From assembly GCA_018061145.1 (NCBI GenBank), contig JAGOUR010000004.1, positions 10,625-74,624 on the forward strand: 64,000 nucleotides of DNA, in the 5' to 3' direction. The position numbers and the translations under genes are program-made. The notes under the pieces are model-generated. The model had not been told where the DNA came from, did no database searches, and worked only from the letters and a program-made list of their open reading frames with translations. The DNA comes from Minisyncoccota bacterium. GTDB lineage: Bacteria; Patescibacteriota; Minisyncoccia; Phycocordibacterales; UBA9973. Below, piece after piece: positions 12,772-51,548 of the stretch (positions are counted from its first letter, which is position 1; every line of letters starts with the position of its first letter).

Positions 12772-13089
12772 TTATTGATATAGACTTTTGATAATTTCGG
12801 CTTCACGAGCTTTTGCTTCTTTTGGTGGGAGTGTATGACCTGGAGCTTTTAGCGCTTCATCCATCGCATTTATACGATCTTCTTCGGTGAGATTTATTTT
12901 TACCGCATCTTCGGCTGCAGTATTTATCATCTCTTGTATTTTTTCTTCTTCTGTCGGAGGTATTAGAGAAGCTTTGTATTTTTTATAAAAAAAGACACCG
13001 AGTAGCACTAGAACAATTAATAATATTAATATAATAATATTTTTTTTCTGAGAGAAAAAATTTTGTGAAACTTTTTTTATGTCAATCAT
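12772..13089 (-). CDS. Small membrane-anchored protein, first gene of the secreted-protein operon
   Basis: One TM helix (IIILILLIVLVLLGVFFY). Its stop is 2 nt from the start of the 937-aa gene, suggesting translational coupling. Confidence 0.4.
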   Translation of the reverse strand: MIDIKKVSQNFFSQKKNIIILILLIVLVLLGVFFYKKYKASLIPPTEEEKIQEMINTAAEDAVKINLTEEDRINAMDEALKAPGHTLPPKEAKAREAEIIKSLYQ

Positions 13090-13135
13090 TGTATTTTTAT
13101 TATATCACGCATGCAAAGTATCACAACACAAAATC

Positions 13136-13164
13136 TTGCTTTTCTGTGGAAAAGTTGGTATTAT
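13136..13164 (+). promoter_or_regulatory. Sigma-70-type promoter for the nusA transcript
   Basis: TTGCTT (13136-13141), a 17-nt spacer, then TATTAT (13159-13164). Confidence 0.45.
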
Positions 13165-13176
13165 ATTTATACAAAT

Positions 13177-13200
13177 GTCCGTCTCGAACCGGACTTTTTT
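13177..13200 (+). promoter_or_regulatory. Leader hairpin plus T6 immediately downstream of the predicted TSS (attenuator-like)
   Basis: gtccg-tctcgaac-cggac followed by tttttt. Confidence 0.3.
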
Positions 13201-13389
13201 AGTAAAATAATGAGCCGTAGGCGAATATATTTTATTTATGCAAAACAAGGAGCATCGCGACTATGTTTTGCGCTAGTAAAATAAGGAGCTACGTGTGAAC
13301 ATATTTTATTTATTCAAAATAGGGAGCGAAGCGACCATATTTTGTATTTTAGCAAAATTAAATAGAAGGCATAAATATTTTTTCATGCC
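13201..13389 (+). repeat. Tandem repeat of a ~75-bp unit, about 2.5 copies, in the nusA 5' leader
   Basis: Unit 1 is 13201-13275 and unit 2 is 13276-13350 (agtaaaataaKgagc...atattttatttatKcaaaa.a.ggagc..gcgac.at.ttttg), with a partial third unit. Each half-unit carries a GGAG element. Confidence 0.6.
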
Positions 13390-14590: not shown

Positions 14591-14680
14591 TTAGCACGCT
14601 AGTAACTAGGTTCTAGGGACTAGCAAAGTTATAAATCATTAATACTAGCAACTAGAACCTAGTTACTAGAAACTAATCCT

Positions 14681-15265
14681 ATGGCAAATATCAACCAAAA
14701 ACCTAGTAAATTCATGTATAACCTATTGCACGTGCTACCAGCATTTGCAAACGAAGAAAAGGGTGTAATCAATGCAATTATCGAAGTATCAGCAGGATCT
14801 ATCAATAAATACGAGATGATCACAGAAAGTGGCCAATTAAAGCTTGATCGCGTAGGATACTCGTCTCTAGCATACCCATTTACATACGGAGCTATCCCTA
14901 TGACTTGGGATTATGATGGTGATCCACTAGACGTAGAGATTGTGAACATCACAGAGCCTCTAGTGCCAGGATCACTAGTAGAAGCAAGAGTAATCGGTGT
15001 CATGAAATTCGTAGATGGTGGTGAGGTAGACGACAAGATCATTGCAGTACTAGCTGACGATCGTCGCTCAGACCACATCAAGACAGTAGAAGATCTAGGT
15101 GAATACTTTAAAACAGAGACTAAATATTTCTGGGAAAACATAAAATACCTAAAGAAACCAGGCACAGGAGTAGTAGAGACATTTTATGGACCAGAGGAAG
15201 CAATCAAGGTCCTAAAAGAATGTGAAGAGAAATACGCAAAAGAATACGCTCCAAAACTGGACTAA
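14681..15265 (+). CDS. ppa: Inorganic pyrophosphatase (family I)
   Basis: DGDPLDV and ADDRRSDHIK-type motifs of family I PPase. Confidence 0.85.
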   Translation: MANINQKPSKFMYNLLHVLPAFANEEKGVINAIIEVSAGSINKYEMITESGQLKLDRVGYSSLAYPFTYGAIPMTWDYDGDPLDVEIVNITEPLVPGSLVEARVIGVMKFVDGGEVDDKIIAVLADDRRSDHIKTVEDLGEYFKTETKYFWENIKYLKKPGTGVVETFYGPEEAIKVLKECEEKYAKEYAPKLD

Positions 15266-18102: not shown

Positions 18103-18157
18103 TTTGTTTTTATTTAATTTTGCTCATATTATATCATATTTGAACCCTATTTGTCAA

Positions 18158-18228
18158 CCCCGTTAGAAGCAGGTCGCCCCAAGGTGACCGTAGCACTCGC
18201 ATGCTAGCGAGGGCGGCTTCTAACGGGG
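18158..18228. repeat. 71-bp element with perfect 13-bp terminal inverted repeats ccccgttagaagc / gcttctaacgggg (a member of the CCCGTTAGA family)
   Basis: Both arms read directly from the sequence. GC-rich interior. Confidence 0.6.
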
Positions 18229-18239
18229 TCAATGGGGTA

Positions 18240-18335: not shown

Positions 18336-18439
18336 TCAAACCTACGGGTACTCCTCAAGAGGATAATTATCTGTTATACTAACCCTACAATTACCAATAA
18401 TTCCCTAGTCACTAGCAACTAGTCACTAGAACCTAATCC

Positions 18440-19024
18440 ATGTTAATCCCAACAGTTATAGAGAAGACAATGAATGGTGAACGAGCATATGATATATACT
18501 CTCGCCTTTTGAATGAACGCATTATTTTCCTAGCGGGTCCAATCGATGACCACATGGCCAATCTGGTCATAGCCCAGCTACTATATCTAGAGCATACTGA
18601 TAATAAGAAGGATATCTCACTATATATCAATTCCCCTGGTGGTTCTGTGACTGCGGGACTGGCTATCATCGATACTATGAATTTTATAAAGAGTGACGTA
18701 TCTACTATCTGCGTAGGTATCGCCGCATCTATGGGAGCACTAATCCTATCTGCAGGTGAAAAAGGTAAAAGATTTACTCTACCGAACTCTGAGGTTATGA
18801 TCCACCAAGTGATGGGAGGAGCCGAGGGTCAAGCCAGTGATATCGCGATAAATGCAAAGCATATACTACGAAGCAAGGATACATTGAACAAAATCCTAGC
18901 AAAAAATACAGGCAAGAAGTTTGAAGAAGTAGAAAAAGATGCAGATCGCGACTACTGGATGAATGCAGATGAAGCCAAGAAATACGGCATCATCGACCAG
19001 ATAATCACAAAAGTAAAAAAGTAA
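18440..19024 (+). CDS. clpP: ATP-dependent Clp protease proteolytic subunit
   Basis: Catalytic triad context [12 protein letters not shown] and DRD. Typical ClpP length. Confidence 0.95.
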
Positions 19025-26914: not shown

Positions 26915-27322
26915 CTAAAGTATTATATTCTCCATCCTTTTTACTCTCGCTTTTCTACTCTCCAGATCCAGATAAACCACCAATATATCAAATTGCCATT
27001 CCCTATTCCCTATCCTGTTATGTATTAGATATGTCTGTATAACTCGAGCCAGTCTCTGGCGCTTCCACATGTGGACATTCTCTTCTGGTCTGAACCACCC
27101 ACTTTTAGTTTCATGTGTAACATAATCCAGATCTGATACAGATTTTGCCTTTACTTCTATAAAATATAGAGAATTCCCCTTTTCAGCTATTATATCTACC
27201 TCCCCCCATTTCTTTGTATAGTTGCGCTCCAATATAATAAAGCCATGTTTCCCGAGAAACATACAGGCTACATCTTCGCCCAATTCCCCTATTTTTTGAG
27301 TATTTGAAGTAAATTTCTTCAT
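26915..27322 (-). CDS. yraN: YraN/UPF0102 family endonuclease (PD-(D/E)xK fold)
   Basis: GELGEDVACMFLGKHGFIILERNYTKKWGEVDIIAEKGNSLYFIEVKAK matches the UPF0102 signature (GE.GE..A...L...G..IL.RN.R...GEIDII..FVEVK). Confidence 0.7.
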   Translation of the reverse strand: MKKFTSNTQKIGELGEDVACMFLGKHGFIILERNYTKKWGEVDIIAEKGNSLYFIEVKAKSVSDLDYVTHETKSGWFRPEENVHMWKRQRLARVIQTYLIHNRIGNREWQFDILVVYLDLESRKARVKRMENIIL

Positions 27323-27440
27323 CCCGTTAGAGATAGGAAGTCCTTAGACTTCCGTATCTTACTTATTAATAGTAAACAATACAAATTTATCTATATACTA
27401 TATATTATAATTAAAATAAAAACGAAACATCTCTAACGGG
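27323..27440. repeat. 118-bp MITE-like leader cassette with CCCGTTAGAGAT / ATCTCTAACGGG terminal inverted repeats, abutting the yraN start codon
   Basis: Termini at 27323-27334 and 27429-27440. Internal hairpin ggaagtc-cttag-gacttcc. Near-identical 40-nt block shared with the element at 35790..35905. Confidence 0.65.
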
Positions 27441-27815
27441 ATTCATATTGTTACATGTGTAACTAATAAAGTGTGCCACGTGAAACGTTTTTCTATTTAT
27501 TAGACATCCAAACCATTATATAATATGTCTTTCACTTAAATAGCTTGATAAATAATGGTATTATAGATATTGTCTTATCTCTTTCGTGTATGACTTTATC
27601 CAATAAAAGCCTGTCTTATAAACAATACACACATAGTTATCCACATAAATGCTTATTTTGTAGGGGATTAACCTGGGGATAAAGGGACAAATCAAGGACG
27701 TCCATTAAAATAGATCTAGTAAATTTTGTGGTCAGGCATAATTTTCTGCTGAAAATTTGCACGACCCTGGCTCACGTCGTCACGTTCCACCTCGCACAAA
27801 ATGTCCGACATTTTG

Positions 27816-33394: not shown

Positions 33395-34648
33395 TTACAC
33401 AATGATAGACCCTAATTGAATACAATCCTTTGCTCCATGCACAGCCTTGTCTCTACGCGCAGTTACTATTATGTCCGCTAGTTGTCTTTGGACATATTGA
33501 ACAGTAACGCGCATATTCCAATTGTGAGCTGTCTGTAAATCTTCAGACCCGTGCTCATAAAAAGAAAAAGATTGATCACTATTAGATACTTCCTCTTGGA
33601 GAATCCAATTCATCTTGGATCCGCAAGCCTCCCCTAGAGTAGACTCAAATTCAGGAGTACCTGAAAAGAGTGTTCCCTTCATACCACTTGAAATCGCTTC
33701 TTTTAGTACATATCTTTTAAAGTTTGTTTTCTCGTTAATACTTTTTGCATCTAATCCTTGCTTACCTACGATATAAGTCTCGGGGATATAAGAACGCAAT
33801 AGATTTAAAGATTCACTACTCATAAAAGATTTCAAGATGGATTCAATATGATCATCATGAGTATCATTACGAAGAATAGCGAGCAGCCCCTTAGAACCAA
33901 GAAATGGCTTAGGTGGGATAACAAACGAAACATTGCCATCCTTGTAAGACTGAATCAATTTTGAATACAGAGAAGGTTTTCTGTATAAGAAAGGTAGGTC
34001 GAGAAACAAGCCACTCTGCATATCAGCATCAGTCGCCTCCGTCTCAGAGAACAACTTGCATTCAATGCCGTGCTTAGAAAATTCCTTTTGTGCAATTTCA
34101 AATTCAGGAATATAAAAACGTTCCTGATCTGCATAAAAGAAATTCAGAGAAGAATGTTTTTGGCGAATTATCTCTTTAGAAAGAGACTTTACTACACCAG
34201 GCAAACTCGTCGAGAGGGGGTGAGTAGCTTCTTTGAGCATTTTACCTAGGGTAGAGTACCCAATGCCATGCTTGTTGTGCCCATCTATCTCGGCAATTTT
34301 AAATTGACCCTCTTGATCAAGCATCAAATCCAATTTTACCAGCTGAGGGATACGACTAGGGTGCATACCCTGGAGTTCGTGATACATCTTTGGTACACCC
34401 GTACCAAAGATGTTGCGGAGAGTAGCCCATGAATTTTGATAACCAAAATTAGGCATTGCAGAAACTACTGCAATTTGAGAAATGCCTCGCAGACAGTCAA
34501 ATATTGCAAACCCTAAATCTTCAAGCTCTTTTTTCTGAGCAGAAGTTATAGAGTAGACACTAGGTGACAGGAGAAAAGCGTGGCTTTGTTCGCGTGAACC
34601 ATTCCAAATCCCAGATTCAGAGATGGCATTCATTAGTGATTTTTTCAT
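33395..34648 (-). CDS. Hypothetical 417-aa cytoplasmic protein (possibly ATP-grasp-like, weak)
   Basis: Long unbroken ORF with compositional coding signal. No confident motif. Confidence 0.35.
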   Translation of the reverse strand: MKKSLMNAISESGIWNGSREQSHAFLLSPSVYSITSAQKKELEDLGFAIFDCLRGISQIAVVSAMPNFGYQNSWATLRNIFGTGVPKMYHELQGMHPSRIPQLVKLDLMLDQEGQFKIAEIDGHNKHGIGYSTLGKMLKEATHPLSTSLPGVVKSLSKEIIRQKHSSLNFFYADQERFYIPEFEIAQKEFSKHGIECKLFSETEATDADMQSGLFLDLPFLYRKPSLYSKLIQSYKDGNVSFVIPPKPFLGSKGLLAILRNDTHDDHIESILKSFMSSESLNLLRSYIPETYIVGKQGLDAKSINEKTNFKRYVLKEAISSGMKGTLFSGTPEFESTLGEACGSKMNWILQEEVSNSDQSFSFYEHGSEDLQTAHNWNMRVTVQYVQRQLADIIVTARRDKAVHGAKDCIQLGSIIV

Positions 34649-34812
34649 ATATGTGTATTTTATTTAGTTTTAATGTGCAAATTTATTTAAAGAGCCCCGA
34701 ATTAATTCGGGGCTCTTTCATATATTCCTTGCGCAAATAGAACTACATAAAACAACTCCGAATTTTTATTTCGTAGTGCCAAAAGAAGTTTGTAGTATTT
34801 GTTCTTATTGTT

Positions 34813-35241
34813 TTACTCATATATTTTTATAATTTCTTTTAAATCCAAGATATTATCTATCTTATGCTTTGGTAATTCTATGTCAGATACAGGACCCTCT
34901 TTGCCAAACAATCCTTGTGCGGTCCACACAGTACGGAAACCCAACATATTACCAATCATTATCTCTGCTCTCACACGGTCACCAACCACCAGTACATCAC
35001 TATCTCCATCTGCCAATTTCAAAAATAATTCGGGTGTTTTTTGCTCAACAAAATGAACTTCTCTAAAAAAATCTTTAATACCTAGTTCTTGAATCATACC
35101 CAGTCTGACTGGTTCCAATTTGCTGACTAAAAATAGGACATGTCTAGATGACAGATCTGCGAGTAAATCTAAAACTCCGTCATACAGTGCGCCAGTTTCA
35201 GGATTATATATTGTTCTATTGTAATCAAAAATAATTTTCAT
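34813..35241 (-). CDS. HAD-superfamily hydrolase-like protein (small)
   Basis: N-terminal IIFDYNRTIY (a motif-I variant) and C-terminal VLVVGDRVRAEIMIGNMLG (HAD motifs III/IV). Confidence 0.45.
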   Translation of the reverse strand: MKIIFDYNRTIYNPETGALYDGVLDLLADLSSRHVLFLVSKLEPVRLGMIQELGIKDFFREVHFVEQKTPELFLKLADGDSDVLVVGDRVRAEIMIGNMLGFRTVWTAQGLFGKEGPVSDIELPKHKIDNILDLKEIIKIYE

Positions 35242-35749: not shown

Positions 35750-35752
35750 TTA

Positions 35753-35785
35753 AAACATCTCGACTAACCTCGAGATGTTTTAATT
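35753..35785 (+). terminator. Rho-independent terminator after rpsO
   Basis: catctcga-ctaacc-tcgagatg followed by ttttaattt. Confidence 0.65.
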
Positions 35786-35789
35786 TGGT

Positions 35790-35905
35790 CCCGTTAGAGA
35801 TGCGTTGTTGTAAATTTACGGGATAGTGTAAAATAAGAAGAGGAACATATTATTAACAATAATTAACAAGATACGGAAGTCTTTGGACTTCCTATCTCTA
35901 ACGGG
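35790..35905. repeat. 116-bp MITE-like leader cassette with CCCGTTAGAGAT / ATCTCTAACGGG termini, directly abutting the NYN-gene ATG
   Basis: Termini at 35790-35801 and 35893-35905. Hairpin ggaagtc-tttg-gacttcc. The last 40 nt are almost identical to the yraN leader. Confidence 0.65.
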
Positions 35906-36409
35906 ATGATTATAAAACATAAAGAACAAAGAGTTGGAGTGTTTATCGACACAGCCAATCTATATCACAGCGCAAAAAACCTCTATAAGAGAAAGGTAAA
36001 CTTTGGTGCTGTACTAAAAGACGCAGTAGCAGGACGTAAACTAGTCCGTGCAACAGCATATGTGATAACTAGTGAGGGAGGCGACGAAAAGAGTTTCTTT
36101 GAAGCTCTCACGAAGCTAGGCATAGAGACAAAGACAAAAGACCTCCAAGTATTTTCAGGTGGAGCAAAGAAGGGCGACTGGGATGTAGGTATAGCAGTAG
36201 ATGCTATGAAGATGGCACCCCGCCTCGATGCAGTAGTACTAGTAGCAGGAGATGGGGACTTTATCCCTCTCGTAGAGTACCTCCGAAATACATATGGCAC
36301 ACAAGTAGAAGTGGTTTCATTTGGGAAATCTGCTTCTATGAAACTAAAAGAAGCTGCCGATGACTTCCTAGACTTATCAGTGAGCCCACAAAAATACCTA
36401 ATGAGATAA
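35906..36409 (+). CDS. NYN-domain (LabA-like, PIN-fold) protein
   Basis: VFIDTANLYH...GDWDVGIAVDAM...VLVAGDGDFIPLVEYLR..G..VEVVSF matches the NYN/LabA pattern. Confidence 0.65.
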   Translation: MIIKHKEQRVGVFIDTANLYHSAKNLYKRKVNFGAVLKDAVAGRKLVRATAYVITSEGGDEKSFFEALTKLGIETKTKDLQVFSGGAKKGDWDVGIAVDAMKMAPRLDAVVLVAGDGDFIPLVEYLRNTYGTQVEVVSFGKSASMKLKEAADDFLDLSVSPQKYLMR

Positions 36410-41873: not shown

Positions 41874-42171
41874 ATAATATAATAAGCGGGCCAAATCCAT
41901 CTGCTTTGTTGTCGATTCCGTTTATTCCCGCAATGTAGATAACTACATCTTGGTCATAATACTCATCGACGCCTCGCACCTGCATTCGTCCGGCTGATTA
42001 TATGATTATACATTTAAACTATTTATTTCAAAAATCCTTTCTTCGCATATCTTTTTCAGGGTACGCAAATTTTTTGCTAAAAATTTACTCAGGCTTCGCG
42101 CCAGTCGCGCTGTAGAAGCCCCTAAAAAAGATACGCGTGCGACAGATTTTACAAAATGATAAAATATAAAG

Positions 42172-43203
42172 ATGTTAAAAAACGATATTAAAAAATACGA
42201 TTCAAAGAATGTGCTAGCTTCAGTCGAGCTTTTTTATGCCCAATGCAAAAAATCATGGGATACGACTATTTATAAAAATGATAAAAATGAGATATCAAAT
42301 ATATTAGTCATAGGTATGGGTGGATCTGCACTGGGTGCACAGATAATACAGTCACTAAATATATTGAAGGTGCCGATGCATATATCAAATGAGTACACGA
42401 TACCAGAATGGGTAAATAAAAATACCTTGGTCTTGGCGATGAGCTACTCTGGTGGCACAGAGGAGACAGTCAAGGCACTCGACTCTGCATTAGCAAAAAA
42501 GGCAAACATAGTAGGAATAACTACTGGAGGTAAACTAGCAGAAATCTTGAAAAAGAAAAAGCTTCCACTGTGCCTGATCGACAAGACAGACAATCCCTGC
42601 GGTCAGCCACGATTTGCAGTGGGGTCTATGATGATGATCATGCTGCGAATTTTTATCCATCACAAATTGTGCAGATTAAATACAAAAGACATATCAAGCG
42701 CACTATCAGAATTAGAGAGTGAAAAAGTGCTAAATGATAAATCTCTAGAGAAAAAATACAATCAAATAAGTAAATTAAAAGATAAGATACTCGTACTAGT
42801 ATATGCAGAGCATCTATCCAATGTCGGACTATTCGCTAGGAATCAGATTCACGAGACATCAAAGACTTTTGCAGTCACACACAATATACCAGAGCTGAAT
42901 CACCATCTGATGGAGGGGCTATCGTACCCGGCATCAAATAAAAATATTCTGCATTTTATATTTACAGAATCCACACTATACAGTGACAAAATACAAAAGA
43001 GAATAGGTGTGACAAAAGAAGTACTAAAAAAACAAAAGATAAAATCAAGTGTAGTAGAGGCGAGAGGGGGCAGTCATCTATCTGAAGTATTGATCCAGAT
43101 ACTAGACTCTATGTATTTTGCTTATCTCCTAGGTATAGCAAATAAAAAAGACCCGAGTGACATCCGCTGGGTAGACTATTTTAAAGCACAATTAAGTAAA
43201 TAA
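42172..43203 (+). CDS. SIS-domain bifunctional phosphoglucose/phosphomannose isomerase-like protein
   Basis: SIS motif VIGMGGSALGAQI and second SIS half. Archaeal-type PGI/PMI family architecture. Confidence 0.6.
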   Translation: MLKNDIKKYDSKNVLASVELFYAQCKKSWDTTIYKNDKNEISNILVIGMGGSALGAQIIQSLNILKVPMHISNEYTIPEWVNKNTLVLAMSYSGGTEETVKALDSALAKKANIVGITTGGKLAEILKKKKLPLCLIDKTDNPCGQPRFAVGSMMMIMLRIFIHHKLCRLNTKDISSALSELESEKVLNDKSLEKKYNQISKLKDKILVLVYAEHLSNVGLFARNQIHETSKTFAVTHNIPELNHHLMEGLSYPASNKNILHFIFTESTLYSDKIQKRIGVTKEVLKKQKIKSSVVEARGGSHLSEVLIQILDSMYFAYLLGIANKKDPSDIRWVDYFKAQLSK

Positions 43204-46994: not shown

Positions 46995-47876
46995 ATGGAC
47001 GAAAAAAATAACCCGACAAAAATACAAAACATCCACACATATTCATCCGATATGGCAGATGCAGTACGCGAACAAGAAGCGACGGTTATTAAAATCGCCC
47101 TAGCAGAAAAAGAAAGAAAGGACAGAGAAAAATATGTAGAAGAAAATAAAAGTAATTTTTCTTCAAATATTTTTTATGTTATAGGGGGAGTTGCACTAGT
47201 AGTATCGTCCATCTGGGCCACATCTTACTTTATACAAAAAGGCAAAGAGGCATCCTCGATCGCAGTTAAAAAAACTACAGTAGATACTCTGATAAAGACA
47301 GACGAGCAGGCGATGCTAGACGTGACAAACATCACAAACAAGCAAGACCTGATAAACGCAATAAAAACAGAAAAATTAAAAGAAATTAAAATTGGAAACA
47401 CAAAATCGATAGTTCTATACACAAGCACAGAAGCTGGGGTAAAAATGCTAACCACTACGGACCTACTGGAAAGACTATCTATAAACATTCCAGGAACTCT
47501 AGCTCGATCACTACATGAGAGTTTCATGCTGGGGGTTTATCAGATAGGAGGAGAGAGAAACTTATTTTTAGTTTTCTCGACAAATGACTACAACTCTTCC
47601 TTTGCAGGGATGTTATCCTGGGAACCTACCATCCTCTCTTCTATGTTTAATCTATTTAGTGTGAATGTTTCATCTAGCCTAGAAGGTGTATTTGAAACAC
47701 CGTGGGGAGATAAAATCATTTTAAACAAAGATTCGAGAGTATTATCTCTGACTGACGGGACAGAATTACTCTCCTACATGTTTATAGACAAAAATAAATT
47801 GATTTTAACTGACAAAGAGGAGACCATAAAAGAAATGATCCAGAGACTAGTTACACAGAACATAAAACCCATATAA
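46995..47876 (+). CDS. Membrane-anchored hypothetical protein
   Basis: Single TM (FYVIGGVALVVSSIWATSYFI) followed by a ~210-aa domain. No known motif. Confidence 0.35.
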   Translation: MDEKNNPTKIQNIHTYSSDMADAVREQEATVIKIALAEKERKDREKYVEENKSNFSSNIFYVIGGVALVVSSIWATSYFIQKGKEASSIAVKKTTVDTLIKTDEQAMLDVTNITNKQDLINAIKTEKLKEIKIGNTKSIVLYTSTEAGVKMLTTTDLLERLSINIPGTLARSLHESFMLGVYQIGGERNLFLVFSTNDYNSSFAGMLSWEPTILSSMFNLFSVNVSSSLEGVFETPWGDKIILNKDSRVLSLTDGTELLSYMFIDKNKLILTDKEETIKEMIQRLVTQNIKPI

Positions 47877-50540: not shown

Positions 50541-50543
50541 ACC

Positions 50544-51317
50544 TTAAATCTCTTTTTCTAATCTTTTAGCTTCGGACCAGGCAAGCTCGTAGATCTTTTT
50601 CATAGCATCGGCGATCTCGGCGGATTCTATTATAATACCTAGCTTTTCGCGCCAAGAGGCGATCATGACCTTGTTATCATAGATATTTATCTCTGGGTGG
50701 AAACCAAAACTATCAGGAACTATTACAGATTCACGCTTCTCTTCTTTATCAAGACTAGCTCGCTCGCGAGCTTCAGGTGAATCTGGGAAAATGGCACGGA
50801 TAGGAATTCCTTTTTTTGCACGCCTCTTGTAATACTCAGGGAAATAATGGGGAAGTGTCGGCTGGATATCCTCGACACTGGCATAGGCAAGAATTGTCTC
50901 ACTAGAGCTGAGAGTATCTTCATACACCTTCTGCAGTCCATCCTTTCCCTCATAAAATTTTATCTTTGGCCTATTCTCTTTATTGTGAATAGATACCAGC
51001 TCAGGAATGATCTCTTTGGCCTGCTTAAGTGCGCTCGTATATTCAGAGATCTTCTCCTCTAATATCTGCTCTATATTTTCAGGGGATTCCGCTGTGTATT
51101 CCTGCTTTGGTTCTTTGCCCGAGGTACGCACGAGCTTTTTTAATTCTAGAGATGCTAATACATGGTATGCAGTAGGGCGGTTGATACCAGCTTTGCGGGC
51201 AATCTGCGTAACGGTACCTTTTCCCAATTCCAGTAGAGCCAAATAGACTTCAATTTCTTTCTCCGAAAAGCCAATAGAAAGTAGGCTTTTTTTGATATCA
51301 AATGATGTGTTTTCCAT
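50544..51317 (-). CDS. TrmB-family transcriptional regulator
   Basis: N-terminal winged HTH EIEVYLALLELGKGTVTQIARKAGINRPTAYHVL. TrmB-like C-terminal domain. Confidence 0.7.
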   Translation of the reverse strand: MENTSFDIKKSLLSIGFSEKEIEVYLALLELGKGTVTQIARKAGINRPTAYHVLASLELKKLVRTSGKEPKQEYTAESPENIEQILEEKISEYTSALKQAKEIIPELVSIHNKENRPKIKFYEGKDGLQKVYEDTLSSSETILAYASVEDIQPTLPHYFPEYYKRRAKKGIPIRAIFPDSPEARERASLDKEEKRESVIVPDSFGFHPEINIYDNKVMIASWREKLGIIIESAEIADAMKKIYELAWSEAKRLEKEI

Positions 51318-51548
51318 CCCATTAAAAAATTAAAATAATAATGTTTATTTACAGTTTCCCGTAAGTCGATTTTCTAACGGGACAAGTATATTCATTGTAT
51401 TCCAAGCAATATATTTTGTCAATCTATATCAACAAAATTATTTAAATCTATAAAACACCCTGTTTTACAAGATTAAAATTAAAGAAATTAGTTCTGTATG
51501 CTTGACAAATATTGCATGCCTGATATTATATATATAAAATTTTAAAAC

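Follow-up and report, generated by a model that had tools for sequence, protein, structure and literature searches.

Among the described systems closest to the locus studied here, the Correia or nemis elements of Neisseria are transposable elements of the miniature inverted-repeat type (MITEs) with a TA duplication, repeats of about 26 bp and no tie to start codons. The Rickettsia palindromic elements (RPEs) are selfish palindromic DNA that lies inside genes and is translated in-frame as a part of the protein, and the repetitive extragenic palindromic (REP) sequences and REPINs lie mostly downstream of genes, do not duplicate their target and are mobilized by RAYT transposases, for which they need a gene present in single copy. 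At the level of expression, termination-reinitiation in operons has the classical geometry of an AUGA overlap or of UAA-N4-AUG, bypass elements are known as the gap of T4 gene 60 and the mitochondrial 'byps', and Ty3 integrates at Pol III start sites. The locus examined here is a stretch of 64,000 nucleotides from a Minisyncoccota bacterium (the whole of which is henceforth called the window), where two cassettes of about 120 bp run directly into the start codons of two genes, yraN and a gene for an NYN-domain protein. In our reading, to which we give a rough probability of 0.7, the cassette is a non-autonomous, MITE-like mobile element with terminal inverted repeats and belongs to a large family of the Patescibacteria or Candidate Phyla Radiation (CPR). 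The two cassettes and their neighbors comprise the following features:

27322-27441, minus strand: copy 1, complete element of 120 nt, TCCCGTTAGAGAT...ATCTCTAACGGGA; the yraN ATG takes its A from the end of the element
27429-27441, minus strand: copy 1, 5' terminal inverted repeat, 13 nt
27322-27334, minus strand: copy 1, 3' terminal inverted repeat, 13 nt
27336-27353, minus strand: copy 1, subterminal hairpin GGAAGTC-TAAG-GACTTCC
27442-27446, minus strand: copy 1, target duplicate on the upstream side, A + TGAA, with the old ATG start at 27444-27446
27318-27321, minus strand: copy 1, downstream copy of TGAA
27411-27446, minus strand: copy 1, short upstream open reading frame (uORF) from the old ATG, MNPVRDVSFLF, stopping after 11 codons and thus not of the class that is open through the element
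26915-27322, minus strand: UPF0102/YraN gene, Pfam-confirmed; its start codon is the insertion site of copy 1
35789-35906, plus strand: copy 2, complete element of 118 nt, the terminal A of which begins the NYN ATG
35789-35801, plus strand: copy 2, 5' terminal inverted repeat
35894-35906, plus strand: copy 2, 3' terminal inverted repeat
35816-35824, plus strand: copy 2, internal pseudo-3'-box TTACGGGAT, with local pairing to the 5' terminus in a predicted hairpin of -11.9 kcal/mol
35875-35892, plus strand: copy 2, subterminal hairpin GGAAGTC-TTTG-GACTTCC
35906-36409, plus strand: NYN-domain (LabA/DUF88-like) gene, Pfam-confirmed
35752-35781, plus strand: rpsO terminator hairpin, directly 5' of copy 2, which leaves no space for an upstream promoter

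An earlier inspection of the letters alone (the sequence-only reading) had placed two cassettes with inverted termini at these sites, and this holds, with true extents and an inverted repeat that are one base longer on each side (T...A). Its further descriptions of an ATG without any spacer and of nuclease-fold genes downstream are likewise borne out: the 3' terminus runs directly into the ATG of yraN and of NYN, such that the cassette forms the leader immediately 5' of the start codon, and Pfam places the products in UPF0102/YraN and NYN. On the coding strand, both copies begin with TCCCGTTAGAGATG and end with AAGATACGGAAGTC-nnn-GGACTTCCTATCTCTAACGGGA, the final A belonging to the ATG. The sequence CCCGTTAGAGAT occurs exactly four times in the window, at the two ends of each cassette, and a 36-nt 3' module, GATACGGAAGTCnnnGGACTTCCTATCTCTAACGGG, occurs twice as against zero times in 100 shuffles. 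The proposed 40-nt leader common to both genes is near-identical, as 37 of the last 41 nt agree, with the hairpin loop among the differences. Aligned pairwise, the cassettes share their first 14 nt and are near-identical at the ends, but their AT-rich middles of about 63 nt can barely be aligned (score 8 against -1.5 +/- 3.9 for shuffles, 8 of 500 of which do as well). In the predicted RNA fold of each copy, a stem of 15 bp closes the element and a hairpin of 7 bp stacks on the 3' strand of this stem, with energies of -41.1 and -39.7 kcal/mol (z about -5.7), and the hairpin of copy 1 is extendable to AGATAC.../...TATCT (27331-27359), an extension that competes with the terminal stem. The duplication around copy 1 is intact, with A-TGAA on either side, copy 2 has no flank duplication, and copy 2 is found in eight contigs of the same species with 100% identity and in the same orientation.

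Far from being confined to this pair of genes, as the sequence-only reading had allowed that they might be, such cassettes clearly form a dispersed family. Paired termini were searched in the window and in the NYN loci taken from 80 species, where 13 paired copies were found, and a scan of metagenome contigs with the pattern TCCCGTTAGA-N75-105-TCTAACGGGA gave at least 120 matches; in all, the 80 related genomes and the metagenome contigs furnish at least 142 distinct copies of the architecture TCCCGTTAGA...TCTAACGGGA. These range from 69 to 124 nt, mostly 115-123 nt, with up to four copies in 17.5 kb, and conform to the consensus T-CCCGTTAGA-NNN...NNN-TCTAACGGG-A, while terminus-box variants beyond the fixed 10-nt boxes include CCCGTACGA and CACGTACGA. 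As the search fixed 10 nt at each terminus and left positions 11-13 free, the pairing of these three positions in 127, 124 and 122 of 128 copies, by four types of pairs, is a case of covariation, and it is because they still pair in nearly all copies that the inverted repeat can be put at 13 bp. Inward of this repeat, CCU is conserved on the 3' side only, and the two sides otherwise differ there. A hairpin of 6-9 bp abuts the 3' repeat in 37 of 132 copies, its stem varying by compensatory substitutions (this set was chosen for having the hairpin, so that only the covariation is informative). A pseudo-3'-box (ACGGGA or AUGGGA) lies 20-40 nt from the 5' end in 44 of 128 copies, as against six with the mirror motif. 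The interiors are otherwise unrelated, with a median pairwise identity of 56%, which is the level of the AT-rich background, and about 0.1 bit per position. Both window copies belong to an AT-rich subtype with an ACGG-hairpin-CCUA module and without an open frame.

The named hosts include Azambacteria, Zambryskibacteria, Nomurabacteria, Doudnabacteria and other Patescibacteria, along with one metagenome-assembled genome labelled Limnocylindria. The spread is patchy, as most of the 80 species are without the element at the fetched loci and some have three or four copies in 10-17 kb. Rfam matched only tRNAs, be it in the window at the gathering threshold, in both cassettes at E<=10 or in nine element-rich loci; the plasmid, phage and IMG/VR collections gave no match to the element termini; and no description of the family was found in the searchable literature, by sequence or by topic. 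Apparently, then, this is a so far undescribed family of start-codon-resident inverted-repeat elements of about 120 bp in the Patescibacteria/CPR.

The window holds two further members and two target sites that are occupied in a related contig, L010 (labels of this form denote the related loci and contigs that were compared with the window):

18158-18228, no strand assigned: third member, short GC-rich form of 71 nt, CCCCGTTAGAAG...CTTCTAACGGGG, with no start codon at the site
51317-51382, minus strand: fourth member, short and decayed, TCCCGTTAGAAAA...TTTTTTAATGGGA, its 3' box altered by two C-to-T substitutions
46995-46999, plus strand: empty target site ATGGA, plain aaactatATGGAcgaa in the window, filled in L010
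42172-42176, plus strand: empty target site ATGTT at the start of the PGI gene, ataaagATGTTaaaa in the window, filled in L010

The case for mobility is carried by the flanks and by the comparison of filled and empty sites. An exact 4-bp duplication, oriented on the TG side, flanks 83 of 131 copies as against 33.4 expected, and even among those whose right flank is not TGAA it is present in 31 of 57 as against 7.8. The duplication is usually 4 bp and rarely 5 bp, and occurs at non-ATG copies too: TAAA twice, CTAA in the 3' box of another copy, TTTTA, TATGA, and TCAA at the third window member (18154-18157 and 18229-18232), where it overlaps the TTGACA -35 box of a minus-strand TTGACA-N18-TATAAT promoter that this member adjoins. 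L010, which is about 92-95% identical to the window, has a 119-nt element with the duplication TGGA (L010:16793-16911) where the orthologous window site at 46995 is empty, and is filled at 13111-13230 where the window at 42172 is empty. Conversely, the yraN site that copy 1 occupies is empty in L014, with gttacacatgtaacatt directly followed by ATGAAGAAATTT. The element at the NYN ATG is present in L010, of the same species, and in seven other species (L046, L049, L056, L057, L058, L059, L065), in three subtypes. Most of the 80 species have no element there, among them the closest other species at 98% protein identity, in which TATAAT comes after the terminator and the ATG 8 nt further on. Set against this unoccupied site, copy 2 must have lost about 19 nt, the native -10 box and the old ATG among them. 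At the yraN ATG, L010 has the same flanks as the window around an element with the termini TCCCGTACGAAAT...ATTTCGTACGGGA and the hairpin GGAAATG/CATTTCC, which compensatory changes set apart from the window element at three pairs of the repeat and at three of the hairpin; such changes between identical flanks indicate turnover or replacement at this site, not drift in place. A further terminus variant occurs at yraN in L043.

The family thus combines inverted repeats, a target duplication of constant length, insertion polymorphism, small size, multiple copies and the lack of any transposase coding capacity, as in MITEs, and the mobile nature that the sequence-only reading had offered as one option agrees with the dispersal, the flank duplications and the polymorphic sites. 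From the same patterns, we infer that the identical ends of copies 1 and 2 reflect the family consensus along with turnover or replacement, and not a shared regulation of two nucleases. The resemblance to the Correia elements is extensive: both are of about 100-160 bp with terminal inverted repeats, flank duplications, many dispersed copies and no transposase gene, and co-transcription with the neighbors, long mRNA hairpins and an ability to alter expression, as known of Correia, are likely here as well. Unlike Correia, the present family has a 4-bp duplication of the TGRR type (TGAA, TGGA, TGAG) and a 13-bp repeat, sits in 93% of copies on an ATG that it rebuilds with its own terminal A, keeps a fixed orientation and often has a pass-through frame. 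With the REPINs it shares short hairpin-forming repeats of about 100 nt that are vertically carried in chromosomes at high copy number, but it has duplications and the preference for start codons described below, and no RAYT gene was seen with it.

That preference is pronounced. In 133 of 143 copies (93%), TG adjoins the terminal A at one end of the element and at that end only, and all 83 copies with a duplication have an A at -5, making the target ATGNN; in almost all surviving copies the target, A-TGRR, is the start codon of a real gene. The rebuilt ATG consists of the terminal A of the element and the downstream copy of the duplicated TGRR, and the old ATG stays behind, some 120 nt upstream; the fourth window member, for instance, abuts the ATG of a gene at 50543-51317. 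TGAA is preferred, being the target of 56% of the copies as against 22% of ordinary start codons. The frame opened by the right-hand ATG has a median of 189 aa, and public gene calls contain products with exactly that start in nine of ten tested cases. The downstream proteins, 114 in number, fall into 95 clusters, mostly of housekeeping functions, and into 137 Pfam families, none of which recurs in more than three members; among them are valyl- and other tRNA synthetases, ribosomal proteins, FtsH, PolA, CTP synthase, PGK, Mur ligases, MurJ and a hibernation factor. The orientation relative to the gene is also fixed, with 39 interior-similar pairs in plus/plus and three in plus/minus arrangement, one of these three exceptions being the short GC-rich form. 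A rough count suggests several times as many non-start intergenic TGAA sites as start codons of the form ATGAA, but next to none of these sites carries an element. We infer that the bias stems either from targeted integration or from the persistence of start-codon copies only; along with the fixed orientation, it might reflect those insertions that keep the gene expressed, and possibly those that are protected from sloppy deletion. Transcription-start-site targeting was considered as a general rule and set aside, as leaderless-type -10 boxes are only modestly enriched (30% vs 18%, p = 0.01) and copies at internal cistrons of the S10 operon contradict it.

Several individual copies deserve separate mention. 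In the S10 ribosomal-protein operon of L167, two related copies (115-234 and 1669-1824) sit on the start codons of rpsS and rplW, the latter being a 156-nt variant with a 51-codon open pass-through frame. Four copies (L204, L196, L098 and the window member with its flank at 51383-51390, minus strand) have a left flank ACTTG in place of the ATGNN duplicate, 8-11 nt after a TATAAT/TACAAT box, and may constitute a subfamily with an extended left end or have a different target. On the minus strand of L127 (560-960), a complete tRNA-Val gene lies inside an element that has the termini of the family. This element is itself situated between what seem to be the halves of another tRNA, a 5' one with acceptor and D arm and a 3' one with T arm and acceptor; the flanks of the element, GTTTA/TAAAC, lengthen the terminal helix and are not direct repeats. 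A cargo-carrying copy in a tRNA gene and an intron-like arrangement are both possibilities here, and ARAGORN deletion scans, which were too permissive, did not define the boundaries.

If the elements persist on start codons of essential genes, the manner in which these genes continue to be translated becomes relevant. A Shine-Dalgarno-like motif precedes only one of the 52 window ORFs of at least 120 aa, and a -10-like hexamer lies 5-9 nt before the ATG, as in leaderless mRNAs, in nine of the 52 and in 18% of the ORFs of element-bearing loci; most window ORF starts are preceded merely by A/T-rich sequence. Upstream of the elements, -10-like hexamers peak 9-14 nt before the first T (42 of 131 copies at no less than five of six matches), an arrangement that would put the element at about +6 of the transcript with the old AUG at its 5' end. 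The frame from the old AUG reads M-(N/D/S)-P-V-R through the 5' repeat and is open across the whole element in 44 of the 94 copies that keep the old ATG, ending either at the UAA of the 3' repeat, which a spacer of 4 nt separates from the rebuilt AUG (UAA-CGGG-AUG), or at a UGA that overlaps this AUG (AUGA); the 3' terminus has stop codons in two frames. By way of control, the frame is open in 17 of 94 on the antisense strand in the same frame, in seven of 37 copies without the old ATG, and in 11.2 expected (maximum 20) from composition-preserving shuffles (Fisher p = 4e-5, or p = 0.0013 after clustering at 70% identity). The interior GC is 32% in early-stop copies and 41% in open-through copies. 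In addition, lengths that would put the old ATG in frame with the gene are depleted (17 vs 40 and 37, p = 0.007). It is from this excess of open frames over the controls and this depletion that selection for translational coupling can be read, and a coupling mechanism suggested by such frame statistics has, in our estimation, close to even odds. Under it, ribosomes would initiate at the old ATG in its untouched native context, translate the stop-free frame through the element, thereby melting the 13-15-bp stem that hides the rebuilt AUG, terminate at UAA or AUGA and re-initiate at the rebuilt AUG; the pseudo-3'-box could also trap the 5' repeat in a local hairpin. More tentatively, and with somewhat less than an even chance, the element might be seen as a selfish entity adapted to start codons, whose own last base rebuilds the ATG, which is kept stop-free, and whose persistence depends on translational coupling.

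Comparable arrangements exist elsewhere in part. As with the RPEs, small palindromic repeats are tolerated in essential genes of reduced genomes without destroying the product; unlike the RPEs, in-frame lengths are those depleted here, and translation would run in a distinct upstream frame whose stop lies at the rebuilt ATG or just ahead of it. The stop-to-AUG geometry of operon coupling recurs in the 44 open copies, though in neither of the two window copies, and upstream translation would likewise melt a start-hiding stem; the differences are that a mobile insertion makes the upstream frame, that it has no conserved peptide and that coupling is deduced from frame statistics. Like the bypass elements, the family inserts between matching codons (AUG...AUG), and like Ty3 its integration is tied to the point where expression starts; unlike these, there is no evidence of ribosome hopping, and it is also present at internal operon cistrons, with start-site targeting not being general.

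The expression of the two window genes illustrates the problem. NYN is likely expressed, because it is more than 80% identical across the 80 sampled Paceibacteria species. Its relatives have TATAAT/TACAAT 7-8 nt before the ATG; in the window, the rpsO terminator abuts copy 2, and the native promoter region and the old ATG are missing. Given the loss of the native promoter and the adjoining terminator, NYN transcription would most likely, on modest support, start inside copy 2 or else read through the terminator. As candidate -10 boxes, copy 2 has TAAAAT downstream of the pseudo-box and then TATTAT, while TATAAT is the one of copy 1. A transcript starting inside copy 2 would carry a 5' hairpin leader and an unpaired start region, CUCUAACGGGAUG. 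A conserved outward promoter was considered and set aside, given the equal occurrence of -10-like hexamers on both strands and the empty sigma-70 scan described next.

A number of observations weigh against this account of mobile, coupling-dependent elements. A sigma-70 consensus scan detected no promoter inside either window copy, and -10-like hexamers inside the elements are without strand bias (173 vs 196). About half of the copies, including both in the window, have no open frame, and any route of expression for these is conjecture. In about 2 Mb of sequence, where the fetched loci were searched for terminus pairs 0.6-4 kb apart, neither an autonomous partner nor a transposase with these termini turned up, and plasmids, phages and IMG/VR yielded none either; long-range terminus pairs in L051, L016, L167 and L098 proved to be neighboring separate elements or chance pairs. 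We know of no way by which a DNA transposase recognizes start codons, and the excess of start codons over other intergenic TGAA sites, by a rough estimate 30-fold or greater, is explained solely by the inferred selection or retention. For copy 2 and L010:13111, which lack flank duplications, secondary deletions must be assumed. The metagenome sample, too, consists of what was gathered with fixed 10-nt termini, among the matches listed.

Against this background the rival explanations can be weighed. The fold is predicted to be highly stable, with the A and the U of the AUG buried in it, predictions also give alternative hairpins of local pairing, and the features confined to one strand (the pseudo-3'-box at 44 vs 6, the covarying 3'-side hairpin, and CCU on the 3' side only) would suit a conserved cis-regulatory RNA leader, i.e., a riboswitch, thermosensor or protein-binding switch defining a regulon, in which the long-range stem hides the AUG and either pairing of the 5' box with the pseudo-box or the AGAUAC...UAUCU hairpin extension frees it. 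Both this leader and its switching scheme appear improbable: there is no conserved interior core and no Rfam match, the downstream genes are unrelated in function, genomes of 93-98% identity differ in whether they have the element, the distribution is patchy, and the flank duplications are left unexplained. Moreover, the non-Watson-Crick exceptions in the terminal stem number nine A-C against three G-U on the sense strand, and since they do not favor G-U, the termini behave like DNA inverted repeats (in the hairpin stem G-U and A-C stand at 4 vs 1, very small numbers). The dedicated long-range RNA switch of the sequence-only reading thus finds no support in the core, in Rfam or in the stem exceptions, although an RNA-level effect on expression is plausible, as the stem would occlude the AUG if the whole element were transcribed. 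Slightly less probable still is removal at the RNA level, as a new type of intron or a processed leader, with the terminal helix being cut, for instance by RNase III, and AUGRR restored at the 5' end. A sequence-invariant 13-bp helix at the ends, the 42 of 131 copies whose -10-like box would place the element at the extreme 5' end of a leaderless transcript, and the L127 element between the apparent halves of a tRNA are in keeping with it, as is the retention of RNase III by CPR bacteria (PMC12641178). Yet duplicated flanks are not required for an intron, and, given the selection for an open frame and against in-frame lengths, the element should be translated rather than removed; neither a ribozyme core nor an Rfam match was found, L127 is a single case, and a stem of 13 bp is short for RNase III.

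Two other proposals can be given very little credence. An invertible promoter, or phase-variation switch, would fit inverted repeats around an AT-rich segment of about 90 bp with -10-like hexamers, and a tyrosine recombinase gene lies about 3 kb away, but all eight same-species contigs show one orientation at 100% identity, the orientation in the family is 39:3, flank duplications and empty sites would be unexpected, and the hexamers favor neither strand. Just as little can be said for a private, duplicated promoter or leader by which two nuclease genes are co-regulated or regulate themselves: it would be in line with the nuclease folds of both products and with the near identity of the last 40 nt of the cassettes, but it is refuted by the distribution of the family, in that at least 142 copies precede about 95 gene families, and in L010 the yraN copy differs from the NYN copy in termini and hairpin, and orthologs of NYN and yraN usually lack the element. 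The significance that the sequence-only reading saw in two nucleases does not survive this distribution, and their pairing in the window is a coincidence, as the family precedes about 95 unrelated gene families. A match to integron attC sites, which in the folded state have RYYYAAC as their 5' end and GTTRRRY as their 3' end, was considered and rejected, as the order here is reversed (GTTAGAG...CTCTAAC) and the elements lie 5' of genes on either strand.

Several features around these loci are distinct from the family. Upstream of yraN, at window positions 27450-27463 and 27473-27486 on the minus strand, two 14-bp palindromes, GTTACACATGTAAC and GTTTCACGTG(A/G)(A/C)AC, are conserved upstream of UPF0102/yraN in L014, L016, L020 and about 40 other Paceibacteria loci, the first ending a few nucleotides before the ATG; they look like candidate operator sites. 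NYN orthologs without the element (L021, L024, L031, L032, L034, L040, L044 and many others) have, 30-60 nt upstream of the ATG, the motif AAGTAGTATTAT, about 10 nt, GGTCGA and then TTTTAATA, which may be a promoter plus a conserved leader. Between a CYTH gene and rpsO, the window has a strain-variable 2.1-kb insertion (33395-35241) that is absent from two other same-species contigs (L002/L003 2527-2578); it codes for an ORF of 417 aa (33395-34648) with no Pfam match, which we would guess from its sequence to be an ATP-grasp-like enzyme rather than a transposase, and one of 142 aa with weak, sub-threshold HAD-like Pfam hits. A second, unrelated repeat family of about 125 nt, with imperfect inverted ends TTTCTTCGCATATCTTTTTCAGGG/CCCTAAAAAAGATACGCGTGCGACAG and a GC-rich core, occurs once in the window (42025-42151) and three times in L010 (8509-8625, 9598-9722 and about 12960-13090). 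Finally, CTAGTNACTAG-rich inverted and direct repeats at 14599-14669 and 18390-18430 stand directly upstream of two ORFs of equal length (194 aa each; 14680-15265 and 18439-19024).

The genomes of CPR/Patescibacteria are deemed to be streamlined and poor in mobile DNA, and a family on the start codons of housekeeping genes in many lineages alters this picture, besides accounting for many odd "long 5' regions" in CPR genome annotation. Its invariant termini offer a simple marker for finding the transposase, and the filled and empty sites could serve as strain markers in metagenomes. If the choice of target is enzymatic rather than a result of selection, this would represent a novel way for a bacterial transposon to find its sites. 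The family can also be seen as a natural experiment on translation initiation without Shine-Dalgarno sequences, for which leaderless starts, coupling and the avoidance of structure are the candidate routes. If these elements are indeed coupling-dependent transposons, start codons would be a 'safe haven' in the streamlined, Shine-Dalgarno-less CPR genomes, and a translation-dependent on/off layer might possibly lie over many of their housekeeping genes.

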